From Candidatus Methylomirabilota bacterium (GTDB lineage: Bacteria > Desulfobacterota > Binatia > Bin18): DNA of 64,000 bases. The stretch lies in the NCBI GenBank assembly GCA_035575235.1, contig DATLYA010000005.1, forward strand, positions 369 through 64,368. Reading direction: 5' to 3'. The notes below the pieces were generated by a model that worked only from the letters and a program-made list of their open reading frames with translations, did not search any database and was not told the origin of the DNA. Of this stretch, positions 9,446 through 57,983 are shown piece by piece (position 1 is the first letter of the stretch; each line of letters begins with the position of its first letter). The translations under genes were made by a program, and so were the position numbers.

Positions 9446-9598
9446 AAAGCGAAGAAGAAGGCGTCATTGCCTCTCACATGTCGGGCCGTACTGAACTGAA
9501 CAAGCACCGGAGTCCCATTCGCCAACGAAAATTCTTCGAATTGTATCTTGTCATCCTGCTGCGATATTCTCATGACTGATAAGGAGAGTCGAGGATTC

Positions 9599-10660
9599 AT
9601 GAACAACCACTTGTCGTTTCTCGATCGGTTTCTCACCCTGTGGATTTTTCTGGCGATGGCCGTTGGAGTCTCCGCGGGCCATCTCATCCCCAACGTGGAA
9701 TCCTTCATCAACCGCTTCCAGGTCGGCACGACTAACATTCCGATCGCCATTGGCCTCATCCTGATGATGTATCCACCGTTGGCGAAGGTGCGCTACGAAG
9801 AGCTGGGGCAGGTGTATCGCAACTGGAAAATCCTAGGCCTCTCGCTGGTGCAAAACTGGGTCATCGGCCCGATTCTCATGTTTGTCCTCGCCCTGTTGTT
9901 TCTGCGAGACTACCCTGAGTACATGGTCGGCTTGATCATGGTCGGCTTGGCTCGCTGTATCGCCATGGTCATTGTGTGGAATGAACTGGCCCGAGGAGAT
10001 ACCGAATACTGCGCCGGGCTGGTAGCGTTCAACAGTGTGTTTCAGGTGCTGTTTTACAGCGTCTATGCCTGGGTGTTCATTACGGTGTTGCCGCCGCTGT
10101 TTGGTCTGCAGGGCAGCATCGTCGATATCAGCATCGGGCAGATTGCCGAGAGTGTGTTTATTTACCTTGGGATTCCCTTCCTTGCAGGAATGGCTACCCG
10201 GTTCGTGTTAGTCAAAGCAAAAGGCAAGGAATGGTACCATACCGTCTTCATCCCGCATATTAGTCCCATTACCCTGATTGCGCTCCTCTTCACGATTGTG
10301 GTGATGTTCAGTCTCAAGGGCAATCTGATCGTTCAACTGCCGTTTGACGTCATTCGTATTGCCATCCCCCTCTTTTTCTACTTCGTGGCGATGTTTTTAG
10401 TGAGCTTTTATATGGGTCGGAAAGTTGGGGCGGATTACTCGCAGACAGCGACGCTCTCCTTTACGGCGGCCAGCAACAACTTTGAGCTCGCCATCGCCGT
10501 GGCGGTGGCGGTGTTTGGCATCAATTCCGGCACGGCCTTTGCCGCGGTGATCGGGCCGTTGGTGGAAGTGCCGGTGTTGGTTAGTTTAGTGAACGTGGCC
10601 TTGTGGTTTCAGCGGCAATATTTTGGGGGTAGTGCCCGGCCTTTCTTGGTGCGCTCCTAA
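9599..10660 (+). CDS. acr3: ACR3-family arsenite efflux transporter
   Basis: [24 protein letters not shown]...[26 protein letters not shown]...[24 protein letters not shown] 10 nt upstream of ATG 9599. Confidence 0.95.
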
Positions 10661-10924: not shown

Positions 10925-11128
10925 ACTCGTATTTACTCCTTACCAGGAACGCGAGATCTCTATCACCATTAGCATGCTGATCTCGTTGGCAACAGGGGAA
11001 GAATGTTGTCATTGACGAGAGAGGAGACCTGACGACGCTGAACAGCCGCGAGCTGGTAACCTTTTCCCGGACTGAGTGGGGTAATCGCGACGATCTTCCC
11101 ATTGAACGGTAGGAAGGAAGAACATCTT

Positions 11129-11986
11129 GTGAAGAGTTTGTTGTTTCTCTGTGTGGCGAATTCGGCGCGTAGTCAAATGGCTGAGGGACTGGCGCGCCGT
11201 CTCTTCAGTGACACCGTGCAGGTGCAAAGTGCGGGATCGAACCCTACGCAGGTAAATCCACTGGCGATCGAGGTGATGGCGGAAATTGGTATAGATATTT
11301 CTGGCCACACCGCAAAGTCGATTGACGCACTTGACCTGGCGGCGGTGGATACGGTGATCACCCTGTGCGCCGAGGAAGTGTGTCCGGTTTTTCTCGGTCA
11401 AGCGGAACGACTACATTGGCCGATCCCCGATCCGGCAGGGCATGAGGGCGAATCGCCTGAGCAGCAACTGCACCGCTTTCGCGCCGCCCGCGAGCAGCTT
11501 CGCGGGCGGCTGGAAGTGCTCGCGGCGCTGCGCGAGGTCCCTACGGCGCCAACTTTTGACGAATTCCATTGTAGTGTGCGGGTTACTGATCTGCCGCGGA
11601 GCGCGCACTTTTACGCCTGGCTACTGGGAACCCGTCCTAAGGAGTGGACTCACCGATATGTGACGTTTCATCTGCCCCAGCGGCATACCAACTTCGTGCT
11701 GGTGGTGTCAGACGGCAAAGAGTTGCATCACGATACGTTGTATCATCTGGGGATCGGCGTGCCGGACAAGCAAGCCGTACTCGATTGGTATGAACGGGCG
11801 GTGAGGGCAGGATGGCCGATTGCCAAGCCGCCGCGCACCACCTGGCGCGGGACGCCCTTGCATGAACTGTGGCTCACCGACCCAGATGGAAACCTGATCG
11901 AGATCTACGCCCGGCTGACGGAGGCGGAGCTCGCTATGAAACCGGCAGACGAGGAACCGGTGTTCCTCGTCCCACGCACTCCCTAG
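11129..11986 (+). CDS. arsC: Arsenate reductase (LMW-PTP type) fused to a VOC/glyoxalase-fold domain
   Basis: [20 protein letters not shown] (CX5R-S P-loop), TLCAEEVCP Cys pair, DPAG. The C-terminal about 150 aa is VOC-like ([10 protein letters not shown]...[17 protein letters not shown]). GTG 11129 is taken by analogy with the paralogue at 30949. Confidence 0.85.
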
Positions 11987-12006
11987 GATGAATGCCGAGC
12001 ATGCCC

Positions 12007-13574
12007 TCAACGGGTCCAGGCGAGCCATTTGCTGAACAGCCGCTTCACAAACGGTGTCAGCCGTGTGCGGTTGAATTGATCGCCTAGTTTACGGATGGCC
12101 TCGGCGTGGGTCGGATAGGGGTGAATCGTGCCGCCAATCTTCTTCAGCCCGAGGCCGTGTGTGATCGCCAACGACAGTTCAGAGATCATATCGCCCGCGT
12201 GACGCGCGACAATGGTTGCACCCACGATAGTGTCTGTTCCTTTCTTCACGTGCACTTTGACGAAACCGTCCTCATCGCCGTCTAACACCGCGCGGTCGAC
12301 ATCGCGGAACTCCTGGACGAACGTGTCAACGTCGATCCCCTTTTCTTTCGCTTGGCCTTCGTACAGCCCCACATGGGCGATTTCGGGCGAGGTGTAGGTA
12401 CACCAGGGCATCCCAGCGAGGTGGACTTCTTGCGGCCTTTGAAGAGGGCATTGTGAATCACGATGCGCGCCATAAAATCGGCGGCATGGGTAAACTGGTA
12501 GGGTGAACAAATATCGCCCGCGGCGTAAATCCGGGGGTTTGTCGTCTGCAGGCGGTCGTTGACCTTCACGCCTTTCTTGTCGTACTCCACCCCCACCGCT
12601 GCCAGATTCAGATGTTCGACATTTGGCGCTCGGCCAACAGATACCAACAGTTGGTCGAGCGGCTCATCGTAGCTCTGCCCATGCGAGTCAACCGTGAGTC
12701 GAATGCCGCGCTCGTTTTTGATCGTCAAGTTTTGCCCGCAACAGAGGAGCGTGACGCCGTCTCGTGTGATCGCCCGTTGCACGACCTCCGCTGCGTCACG
12801 GTCTTCGCGCGGCAGGATGCCGTGTTCCGCCTCGACCAGAAACACTTCAGACCCCAGCTGCGCGAACGCCTGCGCCATCTCGCAACCGATCGGCCCGGCG
12901 CCAATGACGCCGAGTCGTCGGGGAAGCTCGGTCAGCGAGAATATTGTTTCGTTGGTCAGATAGTCCACTGAGTCCAAACCAGGAATCGGCGGCGCCGCGG
13001 CGCGCGCGCCGGTCGCGATCACGGCCTGCTTGAAGTTGAGCCGCGTCCCGTCCACCTCAACGGTGCTGGAATCTACAAACTGCGCCTGCCCGAAATAGAC
13101 GTCAACGCCAAGATCGCGGAATCGTTGCGCCGCATCATTCCGGCTGATACGGGCTCGCAACCGTCGCATCCGTTGCATGACGGCGGCAAAGTCCACCTTC
13201 ACCCCGGTTGACACTTCGACACCGAACTCGCGAGCAATGCCCACGGCTGCCGCGACGCGGGCGGCACTAATAACACCCTTCGACGGTACGCAGCCAACGT
13301 TCAGGCAGTCGCCGCCCATCAGGCTGTGCTCGATCAGCGCGACCTTGGCGCCCAGGCCAGCGGCTCCGGCTGCCGTCACCAACCCAGCAGTGCCAGCGCC
13401 GATGACAACCAGATTGTAGCGCCCACTTGGTTGCGGATTCACCCAGTCCAAGGGATGAATGTTACGAACCAGTTCCTGATTGAACTCGTCCGCCGGACTG
13501 GTTTGCGGTAAGTGCTCAATCACCGGCTGATCGACAAGATGCAGGCGTTTTTTCTGAATCACGGACTCCCCCAT
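12007..13574 (-). pseudogene. FAD-dependent pyridine nucleotide-disulfide oxidoreductase (mercuric-reductase/dihydrolipoamide-dehydrogenase family), frameshifted near 12408-12420
   Basis: GAGTAGLVTAAGAAGLGAKVALIE, redox-active CLNVGCVPSK, second GxGxxG. The C-terminal interface domain (IPWCTYTSPEIAHVGL...THPYPTHAE) continues in another frame (track ORFs 12282..13574 and 12007..12510). Confidence 0.85.
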
Positions 13575-13741
13575 TCTTCTTTCTCTTGGAGGAAATACAC
13601 GTGTGGGTCAACATACGGTGGGCGCACTCGCTCGCATTCAGTCTCGGCCGGCCTCGGTGTCCGCTCTTTCGCTCTCTTTGGCTACAAGAGCAGGCCGCGC
13701 CGATCGGCAGCCGGCTGCAGGCGCCCAGGGGCACGGCACGC

Positions 13742-13835
13742 AATCTGCCCGTTTGCCACGCCTGACTCCTCCACCTCGAGTGGTCTGGGAACTCTTTGTA
13801 GTAAACCAGTCTCGAGAAGCGATCGTTCCCGTTAT
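13742..13835 (-). repeat. Copy 1 of a 95-nt conserved leader/5'-end element (degenerate)
   Basis: About 92% identical to 40312-40406. Contains the CTCGAG...CTCGAG hairpin, the GGAGGAG RBS and the first codons (V)ANGQI of a Tat-signal ORF that decays after about 25 codons. Confidence 0.6.
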
Positions 13836-14133
13836 GTCCACGCTCCATACTTCTGAGAGCAGCAACTAGCGCAAGAGTTCCCCGAACCTGTCTTTAGCTC
13901 TCTTCTCTTTTTCCCACCTACCGACGTTCGCCCCAGCAATGATCAACTGCCCGGCGCTCTACGTGCATCGCGGCGCGTGTACGCGTGTCGGCAGACTTTT
14001 TCAGGGGAACCTTTGGGCGCCCGTGAGCGTTTATTCTCAAGCTCAAGGGGGGAAATGTGTTTGTGGGAACTTCTGCAGGCGATGAAGAGTTTTCTCTACA
14101 AAAGCCAAGCAGCCCGAGAGAAAGGAGGAGACT

Positions 14134-14715
14134 ATGACCTGGGTAAAAACTTTTGCTGAGCATGAGGCCAGCGGACGACTGGCCGAGGTATATGCCGAGT
14201 TAATGAAACACCCACTCGGTGGGGGTCGGGTACCCAACATCATGAAGTGCATGAGCCTGCGACCGGAAGCCCTCCTCGGCGTCTGGCGCCTCAACATGGG
14301 CATCACCTTTGGCGCCTCAACCCTTGGACGGGTGCGGGAGGAGATGATCGCTACTGCGGTCTCTGCCCTCAACCACTGCCATTATTGAACGAATTCCCAC
14401 GCAGAGTTTCTGCGTATGGAGACCGGAAACCACACTTTAGTGAAACATCTCAAGACCGACCCCACTAATGCTCCACTGGCGCCGCCAGACAAGGCCATGA
14501 TCGACTTCGCCCTCAAGCTCACACGCGAGCCCTGGACCGTCAAACAGGCAGATGTCGAGGGTCTCCAGCAGCACGGCTTCAGCGAAGAGCAGGTAGTAGA
14601 TATCGTGCTGATCACCTGCACCTTTAACTTTATGGATCGCCTGGCCGATGGCCTGGGGGTGGAGCTCGATCCTAGGATGCAACGGCTAGTAGAAATGAAT
14701 GCAGACAAGAGCTAG
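14134..14715 (+). CDS. AhpD/CMD-family peroxidase-related selenoprotein, motif C-H-Y-U (UGA 14386-14388)
   Basis: Track ORFs 14134..14388 and 14416..14715 share a frame. ...TAVSALNHCHY[U]TNSHAEFLR... matches S..N.C.YC...H. Strong RBS (AAAGGAGGAG). Confidence 0.85.
14399..14415 (+). promoter_or_regulatory. Candidate SECIS hairpin for UGA 14386-14388
   Basis: ACGCAG/CUGCGU perfect 6-bp stem with loop AGUUU, 10 nt after the UGA. Confidence 0.55.
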
Positions 14716-18817: not shown

Positions 18818-19768
18818 CTATTGCATTGCAGCCCGCCTCCGGCCTTTCCGTAAGATAGCGTCTATATCGCCCCATCCCCCTTGTCCCAGCACAGCAACGG
18901 GATTGGCAACCTTTCCTTGCCCGATAAGTTTGGCGATCGGAGACGGTTCAGGCGGATGGATATCAACCACGGTCGGGTCCTCCGGCCACTCAAAGGGGAG
19001 ATGCACGACGCCGCCGGGCTCTTGAATGTCGATCAACGCCTGCAGTGCGGCGCGAATCACTTGTAGTTGCCCTTCTCGATCGCCTGGCCGCCCGAGAGTG
19101 AGACCGAAGGGGTATTCCAGCGCCGCCACGCGGGGAAAACCATAGGCGCGGCTGTAATCCGGGATCATGTTGACGCAGATCGTCGATATTCCTGCTTCTT
19201 CGATCACACGTTGCACCAGTCCAACGGACCGGCAGCAGATGGGTCACACTGGCACAAGAAACGCCACCTCCACGCCTTCCGCATTCATCTGGGTGGCAAT
19301 CCGTGGAGCAGTGGCGCATACCAGATCCGTGGGATCGGTGTTGTACCCCATAATGGAGTAATGGGTGGGAGCCAGTTCACCGATTTCGCCTGACTGCGCC
19401 AACTCCTGAAAGCGTTGGAGCGGAAGCGCAACATCCAGGTCTTGATAGATGTACTCCGTCTTAATGTGGATGTGATTGACCGCGATATCCTTCTCCGTCG
19501 CCCAGCTGGGGAGCCTGCGGAAACTGGGATCGCCCCAGTACGGGTTCTGGCGTTCCCGCTCCATATTGAACGGCGGATCTGAGGTGAGTGAAATCCCCGC
19601 CGTGGTCAGGAGCGCCACACGACACGTCGAGAGTGGCTTCTTCAGAGGGGTCCAGGGAATCCAGTCATATTGCGGCTCTTGGGGAATAGCCTGGCGCATG
19701 ATCTTCGCTGCTGGTCCGGAAAACCGGTAGCTGTCCACCACCTTTCCTTCGACAATGATTGCCGGCAT
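18818..19768 (-). CDS. GrdB/PrdB-family (glycine/sarcosine/betaine reductase component B-like) selenoprotein, U-P-I-C (UGA at 19244-19246)
   Basis: Track ORFs 19244..19768 and 18818..19216 share a frame. ...VALLTTAG...ALPLQRFQELAQSGEIGELAPTHYSIMG...VEVAFLVPV[U]PICCRSVGLVQRVIEEAGISTICV parallels GrdB ...TST-U-GTCTRCGATMVKEIE.AGIP. Confidence 0.8.
19216..19232 (-). promoter_or_regulatory. Candidate SECIS hairpin for UGA 19244-19246
   Basis: CCGGUCC-GUU-GGACUGG (7 bp, one G-U), 11 nt after the UGA. The identical 17-mer at identical spacing occurs in the paralogue at 57704-57720. Confidence 0.55.
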
Positions 19769-28022: not shown

Positions 28023-28347
28023 TGTTCTTAGTCTCCGGCTCCCCCACTAAAAGGATAGAGAGACGCTTTTTTTATTTGATTTCGTCATCTGCAAAAGTAC
28101 CCAACGACAATGACGCCACCCGCTTCCGCGGCCTTGTCCGTACCGCTCGCAACTCGTGGTGTTCTCGTGTCATAGCTCTCTCCATAAAATCCTCTCGACT
28201 CCAAAAAGTTCCCAATCCATACACGGCGCTGTAACAATCTTGGGTTACCACGGGAACCACACGCAACCATCAATGGTTACAACATACAAAGCAGCACGCG
28301 CTGCTTGCGCGACAGCGGCAAACCGTCGTCACGGGAAAGGCTTCAAG

Positions 28348-29097
28348 ATGTATCGTGTCGTCGTTGGTGTCATACTTGTGGTGGTTCTTGCGGTAGGGGC
28401 GTTCATGCTGCCCGTGGAAGCATATCTCTCCCGCTTTCTGGCCTGGGTGCAAACCGTCGGCCCCTGGGGCACGTTCGTTCTTGGAGCAGGATATATCCCT
28501 GCGGCGCTTCTCTTCGTTCCTGGCTCTCTCTTAACACTCGGCGCGGGGTTTGTGTTTGGCGTGGGAGTCGGCACGGTCGCGGTTTCTCTCGGCAGTACTC
28601 TGGGCGCAGCCGCAGCGTTCCTGTTGGGTCGTACGTTCGCCAGGCGCGCGATCGAAGCCAAGGTTGCCGGAAACCCTCGATTCCACGCGCTTGACCAGGC
28701 CGTGAAACGTGAAGGGTTCAAGATCGTGTTGTTGATGCGGCTCTCGCCAGTCTTTCCCTTCAATCTGCTCAACTACGCCTTTGGCCTGACGCAAGTCTCC
28801 TTTGGCGACTATGTCCTGGCGTCGTGGATTGGCATGCTCCCTGGGACGCTCATGTACGTCTATCTTGGCTCTGCCGCGCAGAATCTGGCGGCATTGTCCA
28901 CTGGACAGGCGGCGGGAGGCGCTGGCCGCCACGTGCTGTTCGGTCTTGGACTCCTCGCCACTGTCGTGGTCACCGTGTTTGTCACCAGACTGGCGCGGAG
29001 AGCGCTTGACGAATTAGCACCGACAACGGTGAACGCACGGTCTCAACCGCCAGCCAACAAACTTACGCGGGATGAACAGCATCCTGTTCTTTCCTAA
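28348..29097 (+). CDS. TVP38/TMEM64 (DedA-related, VTT domain) membrane protein
   Basis: ...GYIPAALLFVPGSLLTLGAGFVFG...LGRTFAR...LLMRLSPVFPFNLLNYAFGLT. Start ATG 28348. Confidence 0.85.
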   Translation: MYRVVVGVILVVVLAVGAFMLPVEAYLSRFLAWVQTVGPWGTFVLGAGYIPAALLFVPGSLLTLGAGFVFGVGVGTVAVSLGSTLGAAAAFLLGRTFARRAIEAKVAGNPRFHALDQAVKREGFKIVLLMRLSPVFPFNLLNYAFGLTQVSFGDYVLASWIGMLPGTLMYVYLGSAAQNLAALSTGQAAGGAGRHVLFGLGLLATVVVTVFVTRLARRALDELAPTTVNARSQPPANKLTRDEQHPVLS

Positions 29098-30706: not shown

Positions 30707-30952
30707 GTGGGTTGCCTCACCTCGTGTGGCCGGGGAGCGACGCGGCACGACCGACCGTTTCATGCTTCTATTCAGGAAACCATAACCCAAACGGATAATG
30801 ACGGCTCCATGCTTAACACCCTGACAGAGCCTCCCGGCAATCTGCCAGCGGAGAGGGCGCATACGGTCGGCGACGGCGAAATGTTTTGGCGCATCTCTAC
30901 AGGAGCTGAGGGCATGCACGGCTTCGCGAGCGCTAGAAAGGAGCGTGAGTGA
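30707..30952 (+). pseudogene. Possible c-type-cytochrome-domain remnant
   Basis: Only the tail ...HTVGDGEMFWRISTGAEGMHGFA resembles the class I cytochrome c C-terminal helix region. No intact CxxCH. Confidence 0.25.
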
Positions 30953-31431
30953 AGAGTCTCTTGTTTCTCTGTGTAGCGAATTCGGCGCGCAGTCAAATGG
31001 CGGAAGGGTTGGCGCGTCGTCTTTTCGCCGAGACTGTCCGGGTGCAAAGCGCCGGCTCGCATCCGACTCACGTGCATCCGCTTGCCATTGCGGTTATGGC
31101 TGAAGTGGGGATCGACATCGCTGGACACACCTCGAAGTCTGTTGACACCATCGATCTAGCTGCCGTGGACACCGTGATTACCCTCTGCGCCGAGGAAGTA
31201 TGTCCGGTCTTTCTTGGTCAAGCGGAACGCTTACATTGGCCGACCCCTGATCCAGCCGGTCATGAAGACGAGTCGCACGCGCAGCAGTTGGAGCGATTTC
31301 GCGCGGCGCGAGAGCAGATTCGCGGGCGACTGAACATCCTGGCGGCGCGTCATGATGTCCTCGCCGCGCCGACCATGGCCGATTTTCATTGCAGGGTACG
31401 AGTGGCGGACTTGCTGCCTCGTGGAGTGTAA
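30949..31431 (+). CDS. arsC: Arsenate reductase (LMW-PTP type), paralogue of 11129-11986 with the VOC domain truncated
   Basis: About 80% nt identity to 11129-11600 by eye. [20 protein letters not shown]...TLCAEEVCP. It ends after the first VOC strand ([10 protein letters not shown]). Confidence 0.8.
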
Positions 31432-47934: not shown

Positions 47935-48399
47935 TTAGGCCGACTGATCGGGCACGTTCCCTGGCCAGTAGCGACACATAAATATCCGTAGCCGGGCGGA
48001 GAGATGCGTCAGAAAAAACGGCTTGGCGAGAAAGTCATCCGCCGCCAGCGCGAAGGCTTTCTCCTGCTGGTCCCCTGAGGAGAGACGAGACATAGCAATG
48101 ACGTGGGGGAATGGCCCTCTCCGCTCATCCCGCACGTGGCGTAGCACGGTAAATCCATCCAGTTCTGGCAGCTGTAAATCGAGGAGCAACACATGGACTT
48201 CTTCCTTCGCCAAGATAGCAAGGGCGGCTTTTCCATCACCGGCAGTTCGTACACGATAGCCCTGGTGGTGCAGGTGCTGCACGAGGATCTCCCGAAGCCT
48301 ATCGTTGTCGTCGGCGATCAAAACCGTGGGATGCTTCGGCAATGCCACCGCCGATCGTGTCTTCCGCTGTTGAGCGGCAAACTTTATCACCTGTCCCAT
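47935..48399 (-). CDS. Stand-alone response-regulator receiver protein
   Basis: VLIADDNDRLREIL...LLLDLQLPELDGFTVLRHVR...DFLAKPF. Confidence 0.85.
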   Translation of the reverse strand: MGQVIKFAAQQRKTRSAVALPKHPTVLIADDNDRLREILVQHLHHQGYRVRTAGDGKAALAILAKEEVHVLLLDLQLPELDGFTVLRHVRDERRGPFPHVIAMSRLSSGDQQEKAFALAADDFLAKPFFLTHLSARLRIFMCRYWPGNVPDQSA

Positions 48400-48445: not shown

Positions 48446-49360
48446 CTACTTCGTCACCATGTATACGGGTGCATCGGGATGAAACGTCGCCCACGCAAAC
48501 CAATAAGCAATAACGGAGGGAATGAGCTTGCCGGAGACAGTCTCCCTCACTTGGGCGCTGTCGGCGGCGGCATCGTAGGTAATGGTGATTTGCACCTTGC
48601 CAATCTGATCGTCGAGCGGCGCCTGTTGTTCGCGCAGAAGTTTCAACGGATAGGCTTTGTGGGCGTCGCCAATCGTGACCCCCACCACCTTCTCTTTCGG
48701 CGAGAGTCGTGAGTCTTCATTCTTCACCGGAAACATGGGATTAGGACTCTTGGCGTACGCCAGATAGGGCAAACGATTATAATCCCGATGAAAGCCGGTC
48801 TGAGTCGAAAGCACCAGGGTCTTCGGGTGCTGCTCGCGCCACGCCCTCCAGGTCGTGGTCACCGACGGCATGGGAGAAAGACGAGCCCCGGTCTGCGGAC
48901 CGGTAACCGCTTCTTCTTTGAGCTGTGACCACAGACTTTCCGTCTGGTGGTCGTAAAACAACACGTTGCTCTCGTAGAGCAATCCAGAGACGCCGAAGGT
49001 CAGCTCTTTATCCTTGACTTTGCGGTCGTACACGACGCCGCTGGCCGTCAACGGTCAATAGGTAACGGCAATTGGTTTCTCCCCCAGTCGATCATTGACC
49101 ACCTCATGCCACGTCAGAATGCGCAGCGGGTAAGCCTTGGCTACACCTTTATCTACGATGCCAATGACTTCATCAGCATCCTCCAGGAAGGTCGCTTCCG
49201 CGGCTGGAACAAACTGCGGATCAAGAATAGCGGGAATGCCGTCTTTGGGGGGGCCGCCGCCGCGAATCTCTTCCGGGGGAATACTATGCTTCGAGTAGTC
49301 AAAACCGCTCAGGCACCCAACCATTGCCAGCAAGCCAATAGTGCGAAGACCTTTCTGCAT
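48446..49360 (-). CDS. DUF3179-family selenoprotein (lipoprotein/exported), TY-U-PLT (UGA at 49055-49057)
   Basis: Track ORFs 49055..49360 and 48446..49051 share a frame. ...KAYPLRILTWHEVVNDRLGEKPIAVTY[U]PLTASGVVYDRKV...TTTWRAWREQHP aligns with TVTYCILCNSGVAL of 29341-30585. Confidence 0.8.
49022..49039 (-). promoter_or_regulatory. Candidate SECIS hairpin for UGA 49055-49057 (weak)
   Basis: GGCGUCG-UGUA-CGAC(C)GC, 15 nt after the UGA. An alternative 5-bp hairpin CCGUU-N7-AGCGG starts directly after the UGA. Confidence 0.35.
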
Positions 49361-49392: not shown

Positions 49393-49902
49393 CTACTGCG
49401 CTTCGAGCACACGAATGCGATACGCCCGAAACTCAGGCACGTCATTCTTAAAGAAGATGAAGCGAAAATCGTCCTGCGCGCCGGCCGCGATGCGCTCCAC
49501 CCCCATGTCGGCCGGCGCCTTGTTCCCAACTTCATAGGCTTCTTCACGCAACGCTTCGGCTTTGCGGTTGTAGCCATAGTCACGGAAGACGACAATGTCG
49601 TTTTCACCGAGGAGTTCGAACTGGAGCTTGACATAGGTCAGGGGCTTCTCGGCAGCATTCTCCAGTCGGCCATTGATCAAGAGGATCGGTTCGGACCCAC
49701 CACTCATGCTGAAGAATGAGGTCCATTCTCCACGGTGGGAGAGCAAGCGTACGCCCAGCCCGTCCGTCGGAACCAGACTGCCTGGCACGGCGGTCGGGGC
49801 GTCGGGAATGCCCGTAGCGTCGGGCGGCGCAGCATAGGCGTGAGATGAACCGAGGATGGCTATGCAGAGGAGGATAAGGAAAAGTACATTGTGGGTCACC
49901 AT
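49393..49902 (-). CDS. Exported hypothetical protein
   Basis: Start taken at MVTHNVLFLILLCIAILGSSHAYA (internal Met of track ORF 49393..49995). Lies 32 nt upstream of the DUF3179 Sec gene. Confidence 0.55.
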   Translation of the reverse strand: MVTHNVLFLILLCIAILGSSHAYAAPPDATGIPDAPTAVPGSLVPTDGLGVRLLSHRGEWTSFFSMSGGSEPILLINGRLENAAEKPLTYVKLQFELLGENDIVVFRDYGYNRKAEALREEAYEVGNKAPADMGVERIAAGAQDDFRFIFFKNDVPEFRAYRIRVLEAQ

Positions 49903-50077: not shown

Positions 50078-51235
50078 ATGGCGGCAGTCACAAACATGGA
50101 ACGAACGGTACAGGAGCAATATACAGCGGGCGCCCGAGTGGCGGAGGCGGCGCTGTGTTGTCCGGTGGACTATAATCCGGAGTATCTTACCATCTTGCCT
50201 CAAGAAATCATCGACAAGGACTATGGCTGCGGTGATCCGTCTCGCTATCTGCGAGCCGGTGAAACCGTACTCGATCTGGGCTGCGGCGCGGGCAAGATCT
50301 GCTATATCGCCGCGCAGGTGGTGGGTCCCACCGGCCTCGTCATTGGCGTTGATATGACGCCTGAGATGCTCGCCGTCGCTGAAAAATACCGTCAACAGAT
50401 CGGCGAGCGCCTGGGTTTCCACAATGTGGAGTTTCGTCGCGGCCGTATTCAGGACCTGCGTACAAATCTCGACGCCGTCGAGCAGTACCTGCAACGTCAC
50501 CCCATCGCTTCGGTCGCGGACTTGCAGGCCTTCTCTACCTTTCAGGCCGAACAGCGCGTGGAGCGACCGTTGATTGTTGATGAATCCGTTGATGTCGTGG
50601 TGTCCAACTGCGTCCTCAACCTGGTCGATGACGCGGACAAACGACAGCTCTTCGGCGAGATTTTCCGTGTCCTGCGCAAAGGTGGCCGAGCGGTCATTTC
50701 GGACATTGTCGCGGATGAGCCCGTTCCCCTCCATCTCAAGAGCGATCCAGACCTCTGGAGCGGCTGCATCTCTGGCGCACTGCAAGAGCACGACTTTCTC
50801 CGGGCGTTTGCTGAAGCCGGGTTCCACGGGATCGAAATCCTCAAACGCGACCAACAACCGTGGCGTACAGTGGAAGGGATAGAATTCCGCTCCGTGACCG
50901 TGGCCGCCTATAAAGGCAAGCAAGGCCCATGCTGGGATTGTAATCACGCCGTCATCTACAAAGGCCCCTGGAGTGCAGTGACAGATGATGATGGCCACAC
51001 GCTCATCCGTGGGGTGCCAATGGCGGTGTGTGAGAAAACGTTTCGCTTGTACACGCGCGAACCCTATGCACATCACATTATCCCTGTGCAACCGCTGACG
51101 CCGATCGCGCTGGAAGATGCTCAGCCATTCGATTGCAGTCGCGATACGGTGCGCAGCCCACGAGAAACGAAGGGCTTGGAGTATCGCGCGACAACCGAGT
51201 CGACCGCCTGCTGTGAGCCGGGAAAATGTTGTTAA
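50078..51235 (+). CDS. arsM: Arsenite S-adenosylmethionine methyltransferase-like (ArsM family)
   Basis: ALCCPVDY, DYGCGDP, VLDLGCGAGK SAM motif, VVSNCVLNLV, LWSGCISGAL. This is the conserved ArsM Cys pattern. Confidence 0.85.
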   Translation: MAAVTNMERTVQEQYTAGARVAEAALCCPVDYNPEYLTILPQEIIDKDYGCGDPSRYLRAGETVLDLGCGAGKICYIAAQVVGPTGLVIGVDMTPEMLAVAEKYRQQIGERLGFHNVEFRRGRIQDLRTNLDAVEQYLQRHPIASVADLQAFSTFQAEQRVERPLIVDESVDVVVSNCVLNLVDDADKRQLFGEIFRVLRKGGRAVISDIVADEPVPLHLKSDPDLWSGCISGALQEHDFLRAFAEAGFHGIEILKRDQQPWRTVEGIEFRSVTVAAYKGKQGPCWDCNHAVIYKGPWSAVTDDDGHTLIRGVPMAVCEKTFRLYTREPYAHHIIPVQPLTPIALEDAQPFDCSRDTVRSPRETKGLEYRATTESTACCEPGKCC

Positions 51236-51258
51236 CAGGAGAGGAACAAGCAGGATTT

Positions 51259-52230
51259 ATGCAACCGATGCCATTTGCCGCACGACTCCGCCGCGAGGGC
51301 GTCTCTTTAACACGCTCCGGTATTGGCGCCGTCCAACTCAATGTCGGCAAACGCTGTAATCAAGCCTGTCTCCATTGTCACGTGGATGCCGGCCCTAAGC
51401 GCACGGAAATTATGGATCGGCGGACTGCCGAACTCGCGCTCGAGTTCATCCGGGCCGCCGGGGTGTGGACAGTAGATATCACCGGCGGCGCGCCAGAATT
51501 GAATCCCTCGTTTCGCTTTCTGGTGGAACAGGCGCGGTGCGACGGCCGTCAGGTGCTGGATCGCTGTAACCTCACGGTGCTCCTGGAGCCCGGACAAGAG
51601 GACCTGCCACCCTTCCTCGCGGCGATGGGCGTCGAAGTGATCGCCAGCCTGCCCTGTTACCTGCTGGAGAATGTCGAAAGACAACGCGGGCGCGGGGTGT
51701 ACGACAAATCCATCGAGGCGCTGCGCCGTCTGAACGCCGAAGGGTACGGACAGGAACGCTCTGGTCTTGTGCTGAATCTCGTCTACAACCCGATTGGCGC
51801 GCACTTGCCGCCGCAGGATAACCTTGAGGCGGATTATAAACGGGAGCCCGGCACGAGATTCGGCATCCGCTTCAATCACCTGTACACGCTCACCAACATG
51901 CCGATCGCGCGTTTCGCCCACACACTCCAGCGGGAAGGCCAATTCGACGCGTACCTTGAGCTGCTCGCCACTGCATTCAACCCGGCGACGCTGAACAATC
52001 TTATGTGCCGGAATCTGGTGAGTATTTCCTGGGATGGGTTTTTCTACGACTGTGATTTCAACCAGATGCTCGATTTGCGTCTCGGTAATGGCAAACCACT
52101 GCGCTTGGGCGAGCAGTCCGGCGCTGAGCTTGTGCGCCAGGTAGTGCGGCGGGAAATTCTCACAGACTCGCACTGCTACGGGTGCACGGCTGGGACCGGG
52201 AGTTCGTGTGGTGGAGCGTTAGCTGCCTGA
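51259..52230 (+). CDS. arsS: Radical SAM/Cys-rich protein of the arsenosugar-biosynthesis ArsS family
   Basis: LNVGKRCNQACLHCH radical-SAM CxxxCxxC, ...ITGGAPELNP..., C-terminal HCYGCTAGTGSSCGG. Confidence 0.9.
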   Translation: MQPMPFAARLRREGVSLTRSGIGAVQLNVGKRCNQACLHCHVDAGPKRTEIMDRRTAELALEFIRAAGVWTVDITGGAPELNPSFRFLVEQARCDGRQVLDRCNLTVLLEPGQEDLPPFLAAMGVEVIASLPCYLLENVERQRGRGVYDKSIEALRRLNAEGYGQERSGLVLNLVYNPIGAHLPPQDNLEADYKREPGTRFGIRFNHLYTLTNMPIARFAHTLQREGQFDAYLELLATAFNPATLNNLMCRNLVSISWDGFFYDCDFNQMLDLRLGNGKPLRLGEQSGAELVRQVVRREILTDSHCYGCTAGTGSSCGGALAA

Positions 52231-52276: not shown

Positions 52277-53125
52277 ATGCTCGTGCGCAGAACAACAACG
52301 CTCTCTTTTCCTTCTTTCGTGCTGACGATCATTTGCTTGGGGCGCTTTTTGAGTGTGAACGCGCATGCCGAGCAGTTGACACTCGCCGGGTCGAGCACGA
52401 TACAGCCGGTTGCCGAAGTGCTGGGGCAAAAATTTGAACAGCTGCATCCTGAATCCCAAATCAATGTCCAGGGTGGAGGCTCGTCCGTTGGCATCACCGC
52501 ACCACAGAGCGGCCTGGCTGATATCGGCATGGTCTCCCGCGCGCTCCATGCTGAGGAAGCGCAGAAACTCGTGCCAACGACCTTCGCGCTGGACGGCATC
52601 GCCCTGATCGCGCACGCCAGTAACCCGGTCTCAGGTCTCAGCCGCCAGCAGGTCATCGACATTTATACGGGGAAAGTTTCGAACTGGGGGGCGCTCGGCT
52701 GGCGTGACGCCCGTATTGTCGTGGTCAACAAAGAAGAAGGGCGCGCCACGCTCGAGCTGTTTGCCCAGTACTTCGAGCTCACGGGCACCTTCGTGCGCGG
52801 CGCCATCATCATAGGTCCCAATGGGCAAGCGATTGCGACGGTCGCCGGGAATCCACAGGCGATCGCCTATGTGTCGATCGGCTCTGCCGAGGTAGCGGTG
52901 GAACAAGGGACCTCGATCAAACTGCTCGCCCTGGATGGCGTGGCCGCGACGAGCATCAATGTCAAAAGTGGAGCCTATGGACTGACCCGCCCGCTCAACT
53001 TCGTCACAATGGGACCGCCACACGGGCTGGCCAAAGCATTCTTGGATTTCGTACTGACACCCATGGGGCAACAGATCGTCACGGAGCAAGGGTTCGTACC
53101 CGTGCGAAAGATCATCACACGGTAG
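52277..53125 (+). CDS. pstS: PstS-family phosphate(-like oxyanion) ABC substrate-binding protein
   Basis: LTLAGSSTIQPVAEVL...VQGGGSSVGI...IGMVSR...ALDGIALI...TGKVSNW. Confidence 0.85.
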   Translation: MLVRRTTTLSFPSFVLTIICLGRFLSVNAHAEQLTLAGSSTIQPVAEVLGQKFEQLHPESQINVQGGGSSVGITAPQSGLADIGMVSRALHAEEAQKLVPTTFALDGIALIAHASNPVSGLSRQQVIDIYTGKVSNWGALGWRDARIVVVNKEEGRATLELFAQYFELTGTFVRGAIIIGPNGQAIATVAGNPQAIAYVSIGSAEVAVEQGTSIKLLALDGVAATSINVKSGAYGLTRPLNFVTMGPPHGLAKAFLDFVLTPMGQQIVTEQGFVPVRKIITR

Positions 53126-53177
53126 TAGTGGCTCATCGCAGTAATTGTGAGGGGCGAAGGAGACTCAAGAGAGACAG

Positions 53178-53247
53178 AGATTGCTTCGCTCCGCTCGCAA
53201 TGACCCCTCGCTCTGTCATTGCGAGGAGCAGAGCGACGAAGCAATCT
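53178..53247. repeat. Palindromic intergenic repeat (AGATTGCTTCGCTCCGCTCGCAATGAC / GTCATTGCGAGGAGC..GACGAAGCAATCT) between pstS and pstC
   Basis: About 30-nt inverted arms around a 10-nt centre. Confidence 0.65.
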
Positions 53248-53283
53248 TTGCCTGGCAAAATCATTGAGAGGAAGTAGTAGCAC

Positions 53284-54216
53284 ATGGCCAATTCCCATTC
53301 CCTTGACAATCAGTTTCTCACTCATGACCTCGCGCTTCCAGATATCGATGCGACGGGACAGGGAAGCGCGTGGAGGGAGCGGCTGTTCGTGTGGGGCCTG
53401 CGGGGGTGCGCCGGGTTGGCGGGCGTCATCACTCTCCTCATCGTGGTGTATCTGTGCGCCCAAAGCTTCCCCCTGTTGCACCAGATCGGGATGACACGTT
53501 TCTTCACCGATCAGAGGTGGGCCCCGACGCGTGGTCAGTTCAACCTCGTACCGATGTTTGTTGGTACGCTTTACGCCACGCTTGGAGCCGTGACGGTAGC
53601 AGCCCCCTGCGGTATCGCCCTGGCAGTGTTTGCCGCCTTTTACGCACCGTCACCAATCGCCCGTGTCGTACACGGTGTATTGGGACTCCTCGCCGGCATT
53701 CCGTCCGTGGTGTTTGGTCTCTGGGGACTGGTGACGCTTGTGCCGCTTCTCAATCGGGTACATCCTCCGGGGCTTTCGCTGTTGATGGGCATTGTCATCT
53801 TAACATTGATGATCCTCCCCACCATCGCGCTGATCGCGGAGGCGGCGCTGCGCGCCGTGCCACGGGAATATGTGCTTGGTGGAGCGGCGCTGGGCTGCGG
53901 TCGGTGGCAGATCGTGCGAAACATTGCGTTGCCGACCGCTCGCGCGGGTTTGCTCACGGCAGTGCTGCTCGGCGTCGGGCGCGCGCTCGGCGAGACCATG
54001 GCCGTCAGCATGGTCATGGGCAATACCATCCAGATTCCAGATACCGTGTGGGTTCCTGCGCGGACGTTGACCGCGCATATCGGTCTGGAAATGGCCTATG
54101 CCATGGGGAGCCATCGCGCAGCGCTCTTTGTCGCCGGGTTATGGTTACTGAGCGCCGTCATCGGCTTGGTGTTCGTCGTCGAGTGGATCAATCGGGATCG
54201 TATACATGGAGCCTAA
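53284..54216 (+). CDS. pstC: Phosphate ABC transporter permease PstC
   Basis: 6-TM ABC permease with EAA-like loop (...AAPREYVLGGAALGCGRWQIV...). Confidence 0.9.
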   Translation: MANSHSLDNQFLTHDLALPDIDATGQGSAWRERLFVWGLRGCAGLAGVITLLIVVYLCAQSFPLLHQIGMTRFFTDQRWAPTRGQFNLVPMFVGTLYATLGAVTVAAPCGIALAVFAAFYAPSPIARVVHGVLGLLAGIPSVVFGLWGLVTLVPLLNRVHPPGLSLLMGIVILTLMILPTIALIAEAALRAVPREYVLGGAALGCGRWQIVRNIALPTARAGLLTAVLLGVGRALGETMAVSMVMGNTIQIPDTVWVPARTLTAHIGLEMAYAMGSHRAALFVAGLWLLSAVIGLVFVVEWINRDRIHGA

Positions 54217-55096
54217 CCGCGCGTCGATCACGCGTCCTGGTCTGCTGCCTCTGTTTGTTCATCCTGCGTCGGCGTGGCCAGAACACTTCGTCACAGGTGG
54301 ACTCTGGCTCGTGACCTTGGGGGTAATTGGCGTGTTCGCCTGGATTCTGGGGGATCTGCTGTACCACGGCGCCACCGCGCTCTCTCTTGACTTTGTGCTC
54401 CAACCGCCCCTGCAGGCTGGACGAGCAGGCGGCATCTCAACGGTCATCATCGGGACGCTCCTCATCGTTGGCGTCGCCCTTGGCAGCGCCGTGCCGATCA
54501 GTCTGGGAACGGCGATCCTCCTGGCCGAGGCGAGCAACGCGGAGACATCCTTTGGTCGTGTCGTACGACGCAGCTTGGACGTGTTGGCTGGCGTCCCCTC
54601 CATTGTTTTTGGGCTGTTTGGTCTGGCGTTGTTCGGACAGTTTTTGGGCTGGTCGATTCTCTCGGGCGGCTTGACCCTGGCGTGTATGATTCTCCCGGTG
54701 TTGATCCGCTCCACCGAAGAGAGTGTGCGCGCCGTACCGGCCAGCCTTCGGCATGGCGCTGCAGCGTTGGGACTCTCGCCACGGGCAATCTTGTGTCATC
54801 TGACGCTCCCGGCAGCCACTCCTGGCATCCTCGCGGGACTGGTCTTGAGCGTGGGGCGGGCGCTGGCGGAAACGGCCGCTCTGCTCTTTACCGCAGGAGC
54901 GGCGATCCGCATGCCGACCTCCCTGTTTGATTCGGCCCGATCGCTTTCCTACCACATTTACTTATTGGCCATCGAAGTGCCGGGAGGGCAGGAGCGCGCG
55001 TACGCCTCAGCGGTCGTCCTGGTCGGCATGCTCTTGCTGCTTAACGGCGCGGCGGTGCTGCTGGCGCGACGCTTTCAACGAAGGCTGGCGCCGTAA
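54206..55096 (+). CDS. pstA: Phosphate ABC transporter permease PstA
   Basis: Overlaps the pstC end. ...ESVRAVPASLRHGAAALGLSPRAILCHLTLPAA... Confidence 0.9.
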   Translation: MEPNRASITRPGLLPLFVHPASAWPEHFVTGGLWLVTLGVIGVFAWILGDLLYHGATALSLDFVLQPPLQAGRAGGISTVIIGTLLIVGVALGSAVPISLGTAILLAEASNAETSFGRVVRRSLDVLAGVPSIVFGLFGLALFGQFLGWSILSGGLTLACMILPVLIRSTEESVRAVPASLRHGAAALGLSPRAILCHLTLPAATPGILAGLVLSVGRALAETAALLFTAGAAIRMPTSLFDSARSLSYHIYLLAIEVPGGQERAYASAVVLVGMLLLLNGAAVLLARRFQRRLAP

Positions 55097-55110
55097 CGAG
55101 AGGAATTTTC

Positions 55111-55926
55111 ATGAACGCAACGCAGGTCATCCGGCGGGAAAAGTCAGGCTGTTGTATTCCGGTCACGAAATTAGAAACGCGCCGTCTGTCCGTCAGGTAC
55201 GGCAGACGGACGGTGCTCCGCAAGGTGTCGCTGCCGATGCATAAGTGTTGTGCAACCGCCATCATTGGACCCTCAGGCTGTGGCAAGTCCAGTTTTCTTA
55301 TGGCGCTGAATCGTCTGACGGATCTTATTCCAGGCGCCAGCGTCACGGGAGAGGTGCTGCTGGACGGTGACAATCTCCTGGCTGATGACGTCAACGTCAC
55401 CATGGTGCGTCGCCGCATCGGCATGATCTTTCAGAAACCCAATCCCTTCCCGCTGTCGATCGAACGCAACCTCACACTGGCGCTTGAACATCACGGGGTC
55501 AAAGAGCGGACAAGACAAGCGGAGATCGTGGAAACGAGCCTCCAAGCGGTCGGATTATGGCAGGAGGTCAAAGACAAGCTCCGCACGTCCGGTCTCGCAC
55601 TCTCCGGCGGCCAGCAGCAGCGTCTGTGCATTGCCCGCGCTATTGCCCTGCAGCCGGAAGTGTTGCTCATGGACGAGCCGTGCAGCGCGCTGGACCCGCG
55701 CGCCAGCGCCCAGGTGGAAGAGTTGATCCGCGCGCTCGCCAGGCGCTTTACTGTCGTTGTCGTCACCCACAACCTCCACCAAGCCCGGCGCGTGAGCGAT
55801 TACGCCGCGCTATTTTGGCAAGAGGAGGGGTACGGTGCGCTTGTAGAAGCTGGCCCCACTGAGGCGCTCTTTGACGACCCCCAACATGTCAAAACCCGGG
55901 CGTATGTCCAGGGCGTGATTGGCTGA
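55111..55926 (+). CDS. pstB: Phosphate ABC transporter ATP-binding protein PstB
   Basis: Walker A GPSGCGKSS, signature LSGGQQQR, Walker B LLMDEP. PstB-typical ...FQKPNPFP.SI..N. Confidence 0.95.
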   Translation: MNATQVIRREKSGCCIPVTKLETRRLSVRYGRRTVLRKVSLPMHKCCATAIIGPSGCGKSSFLMALNRLTDLIPGASVTGEVLLDGDNLLADDVNVTMVRRRIGMIFQKPNPFPLSIERNLTLALEHHGVKERTRQAEIVETSLQAVGLWQEVKDKLRTSGLALSGGQQQRLCIARAIALQPEVLLMDEPCSALDPRASAQVEELIRALARRFTVVVVTHNLHQARRVSDYAALFWQEEGYGALVEAGPTEALFDDPQHVKTRAYVQGVIG

Positions 55927-56081: not shown

Positions 56082-57020
56082 TCAAGACGGGTCTGCCTTG
56101 TAGAACAGGGAGTGCGGATAAAACGTGTTCCAGGTCGCGCGGTACGTGACTACGGAAGACAGACGTTCGCCAGTGATCTTTTCGGCATACGCGAATGCAC
56201 TCTCCGGCACAAAGACGATCCGCACTTCTGTTCCTTCGATTATGTCGGTCAGAGACGCCGTGCGCGCCAATATAGCGAGCGGATACGCTTTCTGTACTTC
56301 ACCCATAGTCACCCCAAGCACAAGCTCATCGAGCGCTATCTGCGGACGCGCACTGAGCGGCCAGTGGATACCGCCGAGTGGAGAGAGCAATGTTTGCAGG
56401 GTTTTCCCTAAAGCGGAAAAGACAGCCGGAACACGCCGTTCGACCACGACGCGGCTATGCGGGTGTTGCTGTCGCCATTCGCGCCACGTCGTCATCATAA
56501 AGGGAACCGTGCGCAATTTCGCGCCGGTCATCCGTCCCGCCACCGCCTCGGCGGTGATCTGTGACCAGAGGCTGTCCGTCTGACGATCATACAGCAAGAG
56601 GTTGCTATGATAGAGCCGTCCGGAAACGCCAAAGCTGAGCGTCTGTTCTCCGACATTGCGGTCGTACACGACGCCGCTGACCGTAAGCGGTCACCACGTG
56701 ACGGCGATCGGCCGGCCTCCGATGTCGTCATTGACGATCTCGTGACCATGAAGGATGCGGATCGGATAGGCGCGCGCTTCCTCACCGATAACCACGCCGA
56801 TGACCTGCTCTTCAGGAACCAGGTCGTCGACCGCGCTGGCCGGAACCACTTCCGGATTATCGATTGCGGGGATGGCGTCCTTCGGCACGACTTGAATTGA
56901 TAGCGCGGGAACCGGCGCACTGTGGCGCGTGAGATCAAAGCCCCAGGCTGGGGTGGTCAGCGACAAGAGGAAAAAACAGGAAACGTAACGCTTCAACGAG
57001 CTGAGAAGGATGCGTATCAT
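56082..57020 (-). CDS. DUF3179-family selenoprotein (exported), TW-U-PLT (UGA at 56691-56693)
   Basis: Track ORFs 56691..57020 and 56082..56669 share a frame. ...RAYPIRILHGHEIVNDDIGGRPIAVTW[U]PLTVSGVVYDRNV...MTTWREWRQQHP. Confidence 0.8.
56658..56675 (-). promoter_or_regulatory. Candidate SECIS hairpin for UGA 56691-56693 (weak)
   Basis: Same 18-mer GGCGUCGUGUACGACCGC as at 49022-49039, at the same 15-nt spacing. An alternative CCGCU-N7-AGCGG hairpin lies directly after the UGA. Confidence 0.35.
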
Positions 57021-57176: not shown

Positions 57177-57983
57177 ATGGAGCTGCATCGCTGGCGGACT
57201 CAACTCATCGCGTTGTTCTTTAGCCGGTTTCCGACATTAACCGCGCGCTGGGTGAAAAAACAACAACTCGATGAGTATGGACCTCCCCCCTGGAGCCCAG
57301 TAACGAAACCGGTGACGCAATGTCGAGTGGCTTTGGTCACCACCGCCGGTGTGCATCGCAAAGAGGACACCCCGTTCAATATGGAGGATAGACAGGGAGA
57401 TCCTACGTATCGCGTCATCCCGCGAGATATCCCCCGCGAAGATTTATGCATCACGCATGATTACTATGATCATCGTGATGCTGACAAAGACTTGAACATC
57501 GTCCTCCCGTTAGATCGTCTACAGGAGCTCGTGCAAGAGCGCATCGTCGGTGAAGTGGCGCCGTTTCACTATAGTTTTATGGGTCATATCGACGGACCGC
57601 ATGTGTCGCGCCTGCTGGCCGACACCGCGCCATCCGTGGCCCGGCGCCTCAAGCGCGAACAGGTTGATGCGGTTGTGTTGACCCCTGCATGAGGGCTGTG
57701 TAACCGGTCCGTTGGACTGGTCGCACGGACAATCGAGCAGCATGGCGTTCCCACGGTAGCGCTTAGTATTCAACGGGAATTGACGGAAAAGACCCGTCCA
57801 CCGCGCGCGCTCTTTGTGCGCTGGCCGTATGGGCATCCGTTAGGAGAACCTTTCAATGTGGCGCAACAGCGCTGGGTGTTGCGCGACGCCTTAAAAGCGC
57901 TGGAAGAGATTCACACACCCGGCGTCATCATCGACCTGCCCTATCTCTGGCGTCGTCCGGGGCCGTGGGCTACAAAAAAATGA
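57177..57983 (+). CDS. GrdB/PrdB-family selenoprotein paralogue, U-G-L-C (UGA 57690-57692)
   Basis: Track ORFs 57123..57692 and 57780..57983 share a frame. ...RVALVTTAG...LPLDRLQELVQERIVGEVAPFHYSFMG...VDAVVLTPA[U]GLCNRSVGLVARTIEQHGVPTVAL. Start ATG 57177 after CGGAGGA. Confidence 0.8.
57704..57720 (+). promoter_or_regulatory. Candidate SECIS hairpin for UGA 57690-57692
   Basis: CCGGUCC-GUU-GGACUGG, 11 nt after the UGA. Identical to the element at 19216-19232. Confidence 0.55.

Follow-up and report, generated by a model that had tools for sequence, protein, structure and literature searches.

The gene considered here lies on the minus strand of a 64,000-nucleotide (nt) stretch of contig DATLYA010000005.1 from a Candidatus Methylomirabilota bacterium (the window, whose first letter is position 1). 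It encodes a member of the DUF3179 family and is interrupted by an in-frame TGA codon that is very probably read as selenocysteine (Sec). Positions 48446-49360 form one reading frame of 304 codons followed by a TAG stop, with a GGAGG motif 5 nt 5′ of the ATG. The sole internal stop is the TGA at codon 102 (49055-49057), found in the translated context PIAVTY-stop-PLTASGVVY. When codon 102 is read as cysteine, the translation matches the Pfam family PF11376 (DUF3179) with 315.2 bits (E 6e-94) across residues 39-273, on both sides of the TGA. This score, set against a family cutoff of 27 bits, and the coverage of profile positions 1-235 of 292 place the protein within the family. In addition, the C-terminal YWFAWATFHP block of the product aligns with the orthologues. 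A search of NCBIfam returned no model for this protein, and more than 7,600 DUF3179 proteins are present in the database at E ≤1e-10.

A total of 160 loci were fetched from GTDB species representatives and metagenomes, and the codon aligned to position 102 was read. Across the 162 aligned homologous sites this codon is TGC in 65, TGT in 53 and TGA in 30, with 14 other codons that include Asn, Ser and Gly as well as several off-register alignments of an internal repeat; neither TAA nor TAG occurs, a distribution well outside what chance would give. An earlier note on this DNA had assigned the TGA to the first, conserved Cys of the family motif, and the counts bear this out, as the first position of T[YFW]-C-P-L-[CT] is Cys at 118 sites and TGA at 30. 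The replacement of the second motif Cys by Thr, described in the same note, is real and common to the whole clade. The Cys-form paralogue with which that note compared the gene does read PITVTYCILCNSGVAL, and it matches DUF3179 at E 4e-58. In an alignment of 80 sequences (A1), C102 is invariant, His25 and His85 are nearly so, and many aromatic and acidic residues are invariant.

In a metagenome scan, all 19 of 19 orthologues at 67-90% identity carry TGA at this position. More distant TGA forms, reading U-P-L followed by T, S or C, occur in metagenome-assembled genomes (MAGs) labelled Thermodesulfobacteriota, Deltaproteobacteria, Methylomirabilota, Desulfobacteraceae and Terriglobia. Among full-length orthologues the closest (P0001-P0004; 307-308 amino acids, 71-82% identity) read VTY-C-PLT, and many database entries of 195-199 amino acids, at 77-99% identity, are the C-terminal halves of TGA genes that were split by gene callers. 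Scanning the GTDB representatives with a protein pattern yielded no relative above 53% identity to the gene product; a scan with a DNA pattern combining the TGA with the hairpin described below yielded two Candidatus Binatia MAGs, with an orthologue at 70% identity.

Comparison with 12 orthologues gave a ratio of non-synonymous to synonymous substitution rates (dN/dS) of 0.05-0.10 on either side of the TGA, with dS at 0.7 or saturated. Ratios this low past the TGA indicate that translation continues in frame through the remaining two-thirds of the gene and that purifying selection acts on this part. In a neighbour-joining tree the window clade is mostly Sec, with Cys forms (loci L167, L168 and L161 together with L162) nested within it at at least two places, and Sec forms appear in at least four further clades. 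As read from the aligned codons, Sec and Cys interconvert repeatedly at position 102. By such exchange at this one position, the Sec/Cys pair would mark residue 102 as the centre of function in a large family without a solved structural relative. As a separate observation, the four nested Cys loci (L161, L162, L167 and L168) appear to represent a recent Sec-to-Cys replacement, in which the former selenocysteine insertion sequence (SECIS) region is decaying through synonymous change.

Shortly after the TGA lies a hairpin (Table 1) whose 5-nt apical loop, at +24 to +28 when counted from the UGA's U, contains GU. The hairpin forms at the same position in 29 of 29 unique Sec-form sequences and is built from five stem sequences (GCGGCGU/ACGaCCGC, CGGGAGU/ACUCCCG, CCGGCCA/UGGCCGG, CGGGCGU/ACGaCCCG and CGGGGAU/AUUCCCG). 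RNAalifold recovers it as the consensus structure, with compensatory changes in four of seven pairs. Paired cells make up 91.6% of the hairpin alignment, compared with 27-43% when the partner strand is slid by 1-3 columns, and the covariation score of 0.292 (0.119 in shuffles) was reached in 0 of 500 shuffles. The mean local minimum free energy is -10.1 kcal/mol in the Sec forms versus -6.0 kcal/mol in 106 Cys forms (Mann-Whitney p = 5e-9, calculated on sequences that are not independent of one another).

The hairpin region also stands out in synonymous conservation. Codons 107-113 (SGVVYDR) are the gene-wide peak of third-position conservation, with the third position invariant across 13 orthologues in 7 of 7 codons, versus about 5% of the other codons whose residue is invariant. 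In the four closest TGC orthologues these codons have changed from GGC to GGG or GGT, from GTC to ATC or ATT, from TAC to TAT and from GAC to GAT, synonymous or conservative changes by which the stem is weakened or destroyed. When the 81 nt around the TGA are folded alone the result is unremarkable (z-score -0.14), the signal being visible only by local comparison across homologues. Judged by these comparisons, the hairpin behaves as a bacterial SECIS would. It shares with the fdhF-type, SelB-dependent elements a location inside the coding sequence, an apical loop beginning 23 nt after the U and a G or GU in that loop, and like them it is kept only in the UGA forms. It differs from them in its short stem, of 7 base pairs with one bulged A in the window clade, and in matching no Rfam model. 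The criteria used for this comparison are reportedly those of Zhang and Gladyshev's bSECISearch.

The gene is accompanied in the window by other genes with in-frame TGA codons (Table 1). A second DUF3179 gene, which has a hairpin of the same kind, converges on the end of a Pst-like operon, and an orthologous second copy is present in three other loci (L088, L089 and L090). Two PrdB/GrdB-like genes carry TGA in U-x-x-C contexts, and the TIGR04483 profile spans the TGA in both (positions 17-235 and 20-234 of 238). With scores of 197 bits (~57177-57983) and 158 bits (18818-19768), both fall below the 300-bit equivalog cutoff, and on their sequences they are best treated as selenoprotein candidates and not as proline reductase proper. 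Orthologues of the former adjoin the DUF3179 cluster in loci L161 and L165. D-proline reductase itself (TIGR04483, UxxC) is given as an established selenoprotein family in the selenoprotein entries of a 2026 review (PMC13188914).

The decoding route that these observations suggest is that the UGA at codon 102 would be read as Sec during translation, with the hairpin within codons 107-113 recruiting SelB loaded with Sec-tRNA(Sec), the mechanism of other bacterial selenoprotein genes. Sec would then replace the first Cys of the C-P-L-C/T turn. Several negative results weigh against Sec decoding: ARAGORN detected neither tRNA-Sec nor any other tRNA gene in the 64-kb window, no selA, selB or selD was seen in the window among the ten longest open reading frames (ORFs) inspected, and Rfam at gathering thresholds gave no match in the window. 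The last of these counts only as absent positive support, and such a miss is expected for gene-specific bacterial SECIS elements. Because the window holds other TGA genes we infer that the host has Sec capacity, its sel genes not being seen within the window.

Other explanations of the TGA have to be considered alongside Sec. A pseudogene with a nonsense mutation, or a TGC miscalled through faulty sequencing or assembly, could be suspected from the single in-frame stop, which resembles a fresh nonsense mutation, and from the fragmentation of the gene by gene callers into the 195-199-residue entries. However, TGA recurs at 30 homologous sites in independent assemblies, never as TAA or TAG, the low dN/dS persists downstream of the stop, and the conserved, covarying hairpin 3′ of the TGA is lost in the TGC orthologues; we consider this explanation exceedingly improbable. 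Genome-wide reassignment of UGA to Trp or Gly (genetic code 4 or 25), or near-cognate readthrough, would suit a window in which the Sec machinery is not visible. It is nevertheless very unlikely, as about half of the mapped window ORFs end in TGA, including the ArsS and PstB genes supported by Pfam and NCBIfam, and reading beyond these stops gives short extensions only, without recognisable continuation. Under reassignment a gene-specific hairpin would also be needless, the homologues carry Cys at this position and not Trp or Gly, and PrdB is a known selenoprotein family whose profile crosses the in-window TGA in both copies.

The remaining possibility is that two polypeptides are made, one that ends at the UGA (residues 1-101) and a second, C-terminal one that is initiated internally, for which a TTG-start ORF directly after the TGA (48446-49051) would be available. 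Against such a division, the Pfam domain and the AlphaFold2 fold (predicted local distance difference test, pLDDT, 92.9) are continuous across the site, with the strand that ends in the Cys pairing with the next strand, and the close orthologues are single proteins of 307-308 amino acids with Cys at this position; the chance that two products are made seems to us negligible. We hold with high confidence, on the comparative sequence evidence, that 48446-49360 is a true Sec gene and belongs to a selenoprotein family that the catalogues already contain. This reading has value for annotation, as gene callers split the gene into pieces of 101 and about 195 amino acids, many such fragments exist in the database, and four such split, putative Sec genes occur in this one 64-kb window.

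Table 1. Features of the window: the DUF3179 gene and its parts, followed by its neighbourhood
Feature	Position	Strand	Basis or remark
DUF3179 gene, predicted selenoprotein (Sec codon 102, VTY-U-PLT)	48446..49360	-	Reading frame, PF11376 match, GGAGG, dN/dS
UGA, predicted to be read as Sec	49055..49057	-	Aligned with Cys codons of homologues
SECIS-like hairpin GCGGCGU-CGUGU-ACGaCCGC	49022..49041	-	nt +17 to +36 from the U of UGA
N-terminal K/R plus hydrophobic segment MQKGLRTIGLLAMVGCLSG, putative signal peptide or membrane anchor	49304..49360	-	Sequence; AlphaFold2 helix at residues 2-16 in an orthologue
Exported 169-residue partner (signal peptide ...SSHAYA/APPD; weak DUF3426/FxLYD-like domain)	49393..49902	-	32 nt upstream, same operon
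Receiver-only response regulator	47935..48399	-	PF00072 only; 46 nt downstream
ArsM-like S-adenosylmethionine (SAM) methyltransferase	50078..51235	+	Divergent from the DUF3179 operon; NF040538 ArsM, 352 bits, below the 500-bit cutoff
ArsS-family radical SAM protein, DUF3641 C-terminal domain	51226..52230	+	TIGR04167, 421 bits, above the 300-bit cutoff; PF12345, PF04055
Pst-like ABC transporter (PstS-family 52277-53125, PstC-like 53284-54216, PstA 54206-55096, PstB-like 55111-55926)	52277..55926	+	
Second DUF3179 gene with in-frame TGA (56691-56693), IAVTW-U-PLTVSGVVY	56082..57020	-	Hairpin of the same kind at 56658-56677
PrdB/GrdB-like gene with in-frame TGA (57690-57692), VVLTPA-U-GLC	~57177-57983	+	TIGR04483 across the TGA
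PrdB/GrdB-like gene with in-frame TGA (19244-19246), AFLVPV-U-PIC	18818-19768	-	TIGR04483 across the TGA
Cys-form DUF3179 paralogue (TYCILC), N-terminal membrane segment	29341..30585	+	Between the VTT/DedA and ArsC-type genes below
DedA/VTT gene	28156-29097		Directly upstream of the Cys-form DUF3179 gene
ArsC-type reductase of the low-molecular-weight protein tyrosine phosphatase (LMW-PTP) type	30949-31431		
SBF/ACR3-type transporter	9548-10660		
ArsC-ArsI/CadI fusion	11102-11986		
AhpD/CMD protein ending in CC	8728-9330		
MerA-like pyridine-nucleotide disulfide oxidoreductase	~12070-13574	-	Aligned to a homologue in two overlapping tblastn pieces that differ in frame (13289-12336, 12420-12070)

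An AlphaFold2 model was made for the Cys orthologue P0001 (82% identical) using the 80-sequence alignment. The model, which is a confident one with the pLDDT of 92.9 given above and a predicted template modelling score of 0.89, is all-beta and internally duplicated, with strands 64-112 resembling 224-273. Strand 95-102 has Cys102 as its last residue, after which come the CPLT turn and strand 107-112. A Foldseek comparison of this model with the PDB returned no match with E <0.03 or a template modelling score >0.2 (best E 0.035), and searches of the PDB by sequence (best E 1.7) and by family profile (best E 0.44) returned nothing usable. A thioredoxin-fold thiol oxidoreductase was considered as an assignment and rejected, given no thioredoxin-type Pfam match, the all-beta model and no PDB match.

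The DUF3179 protein is likely exported or membrane-anchored, judging from its N-terminal segment (Table 1). The earlier note had described a lipoprotein-like signal, and this survives in part: a Cys does follow the hydrophobic segment in the closest relatives, but the lipobox is not conserved in the family. The stretch reads A-M-V-G-C in the window gene, P0001 and P0002, position -1 is I or V in P0003 and P0004, and P0023, P0044 and P0062 have no Cys, leaving lipidation of the protein doubtful.

Both neighbours named in the earlier note, the exported 169-residue protein and the receiver-only response regulator, are present as described there. Homologues of the exported partner stand beside DUF3179 in 18 loci, with their upstream position conserved, and a homologue of the response regulator adjoins DUF3179 in 17 loci. 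In other genomes the domain of the exported partner is fused to the C-terminus of DUF3179 proteins of 445-472 amino acids (P0013 residues 356-454, 44% identity, E 4e-21), a fusion which suggests that DUF3179 and the exported protein act together. Given its N-terminal signal or anchor, and a gene that is apparently co-transcribed with that of a small exported beta-domain protein fused to DUF3179 elsewhere, the DUF3179 protein probably acts outside the cytoplasm.

Upstream of this operon, on the opposite strand, lie the ArsM-like, ArsS and Pst-like genes (Table 1), and downstream of the Pst-like genes come the second Sec-DUF3179 gene and then a PrdB-like gene. The gene order of the Cys-form loci L161, L162 and L168 matches that of the window, with an ArsM-like gene in the equivalent position. 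More genes of an arsenic-type set are spread over the rest of the window, namely the ACR3-type transporter, the ArsC-ArsI/CadI fusion, the AhpD/CMD gene, and the DedA/VTT and ArsC-type genes that flank the Cys-form DUF3179 paralogue (Table 1). Among the fetched loci of at least 6 kb, each was scored for an ArsM, ArsS, ArsC or ACR3 homologue. Such a homologue was found in 4 of 7 loci with DUF3179 identity of at least 65%, in 9 of 23 at 45-65% (13 of 30 for these two groups together) and in 0 of 73 below 45%, the loci being phylogenetically non-independent. Loci positive for an ars homologue span Binatia-like, Nitrospinota, Omnitrophota/Omnitrophica and Candidatus Manganitrophus MAGs. Unbiased clustering of the neighbours also recovers MerA-like oxidoreductases, DedA, extracytoplasmic function (ECF) sigma and anti-sigma, AhpD/CMD and ArsR-like genes.

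An arsenic role is proposed because DUF3179 adjoins the ArsM-like/ArsS/Pst-like cluster. We suggest, tentatively, that the subfamily of about 300 amino acids with the motif FDxSxHSIP...T[YFW]-C/U-PL may, together with the exported partner, form an unrecognised extracytoplasmic part of arsenic or metalloid transformation clusters (ArsM-like/ArsS/Pst-like/ArsC/ACR3). Going by genomic context, the Sec or Cys would bind, capture or reduce soft metalloid species outside the cytoplasm, most likely an arsenical. The redox or chalcogen/metal chemistry that the earlier note had supposed at the Sec site would fit this gene neighbourhood. Several points weigh against an arsenic role. No ars homologue lies near the distant Sec forms L004-L007 and L016, a lone Sec or Cys chelates As(III) poorly, genes of the MerA-like, DedA, ECF sigma and AhpD kinds occur as neighbours about as often as ars genes do, and the loci that were counted share ancestry to an extent that makes them dependent on one another.

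The main rival to the arsenic role, about equally likely although we would call neither probable, is that the gene is a genuine selenoprotein gene whose Sec/Cys turn forms part of a Cu, Zn, Fe or Hg site with His or other ligands, within a general metal-stress or envelope redox module. The near-invariant His25 and His85 and the many invariant aromatic and acidic residues speak for such a site, and the CPLCG turn of most DUF3179 members presumably resembles a rubredoxin-type knuckle. The recurrent MerA-like (one ending CCAG), DedA/VTT, ECF sigma/anti-sigma, ArsR/SmtB-like and AhpD/CMD neighbours point the same way, and the 2026 review, in its discussion of uncharacterised selenoproteins, implicates many of them in metal or metalloid resistance (PMC13188914). 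However, the second Cys is dispensable, its place being taken by Thr or Ser in the Sec clades, and some lineages have Asn, Ser or Gly instead of the first Cys, an uncommon variation if the metal site were fixed. In addition, the ArsM, ArsS, ArsC and ACR3 neighbours are arsenic-specific. Should the arsenic role prove true, it would be the first function for DUF3179 and would add a step to organoarsenical metabolism. The metalloid neighbourhood and the fusion partner together provide a concrete and testable first hypothesis for DUF3179.

Several further observations concern the neighbouring genes themselves. The MerA-like ORF of the window lacks a dimerisation domain, and the change of frame between its two pieces may reflect a frameshift, faulty assembly or a recoding site; its homologues recur near DUF3179 in other lineages. 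DedA/VTT genes and flavin adenine dinucleotide (FAD)-dependent disulfide oxidoreductases are among the commonest neighbours of the DUF3179 subfamily of about 300 amino acids (L015, L021, L098-L102 and L172), and in L015 (3184-5484, minus strand) the two are fused into one protein of 766 amino acids. In L172 a CMD/AhpD gene overlaps the start of the DUF3179 gene and a VTT gene overlaps its end. In L170, from a Candidatus Manganitrophus MAG, a radical SAM domain and an ArsM-like methyltransferase are fused into a protein of 841 amino acids (11743-14268, minus strand). Next to the gene for this fusion are those for a PHO4 phosphate transporter and an LMW-PTP/ArsC-like protein, and a Cys-form DUF3179 gene lies at a distance of about 4 kb.

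The earlier note had supposed that DUF3179 is absent from the selenoprotein catalogues, which is incorrect. PF11376 is entered as DUF3179 domain-containing protein, with the motif UxxC/T, in the lists of two reviews, Zhang et al. 2022 (PMC9312934) and the 2026 review in Applied and Environmental Microbiology (PMC13188914). In these entries both credit Zhang & Gladyshev 2007 (PMC1976440; Olavius symbiont metagenome) for the DUF3179 selenoprotein, and their tables give MBW1804167.1 and MDJ0986319.1 as example accessions. DUF3179 appears in one further paper, in which a member is merely listed and predicted to be cytoplasmic-membrane. Equating DUF3179 with 'OS_HP1' of PMC1976440 was not adopted, the mapping not being stated in the relevant passages of that paper or of either review.

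Finally, the gene can be set beside known selenoproteins. The OsmC-like UxxT, distant Grx-like UxxT and VPGUxxT families, as entered in PMC13188914, resemble it in having Thr at the third position after Sec, without a resolving Cys, and in having Cys orthologues. Where a fold is given in those entries it is thioredoxin- or OsmC-like, whereas DUF3179 is predicted to be all-beta and internally duplicated, with no PDB neighbour. The arsenite methyltransferase selenoproteins and the 'ArsS radical SAM (seleno)protein' (NF041536, NF041537, TIGR04167) are likewise Sec/Cys proteins of arsenic-transformation clusters. In contrast to these, the ArsS and ArsM-like proteins of the window are Cys forms, and DUF3179 is non-homologous to them and linked to arsenic by neighbourhood only; the window ArsS and ArsM-like genes adjoin both Sec-DUF3179 genes. 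With the catalogued DUF3179 selenoprotein (PF11376), as it is entered in the two reviews, the gene shares the identical family, Sec position and motif (U-P-L-T here) and the single Sec per protein, and there is no essential difference between them. Three things found here do not figure in the passages of those reviews on DUF3179: the location among arsenic genes, the fusion partner and the pairing of Sec paralogues. The selenoprotein status of DUF3179 is already known, and the new lead is the arsenic-gene setting alone.

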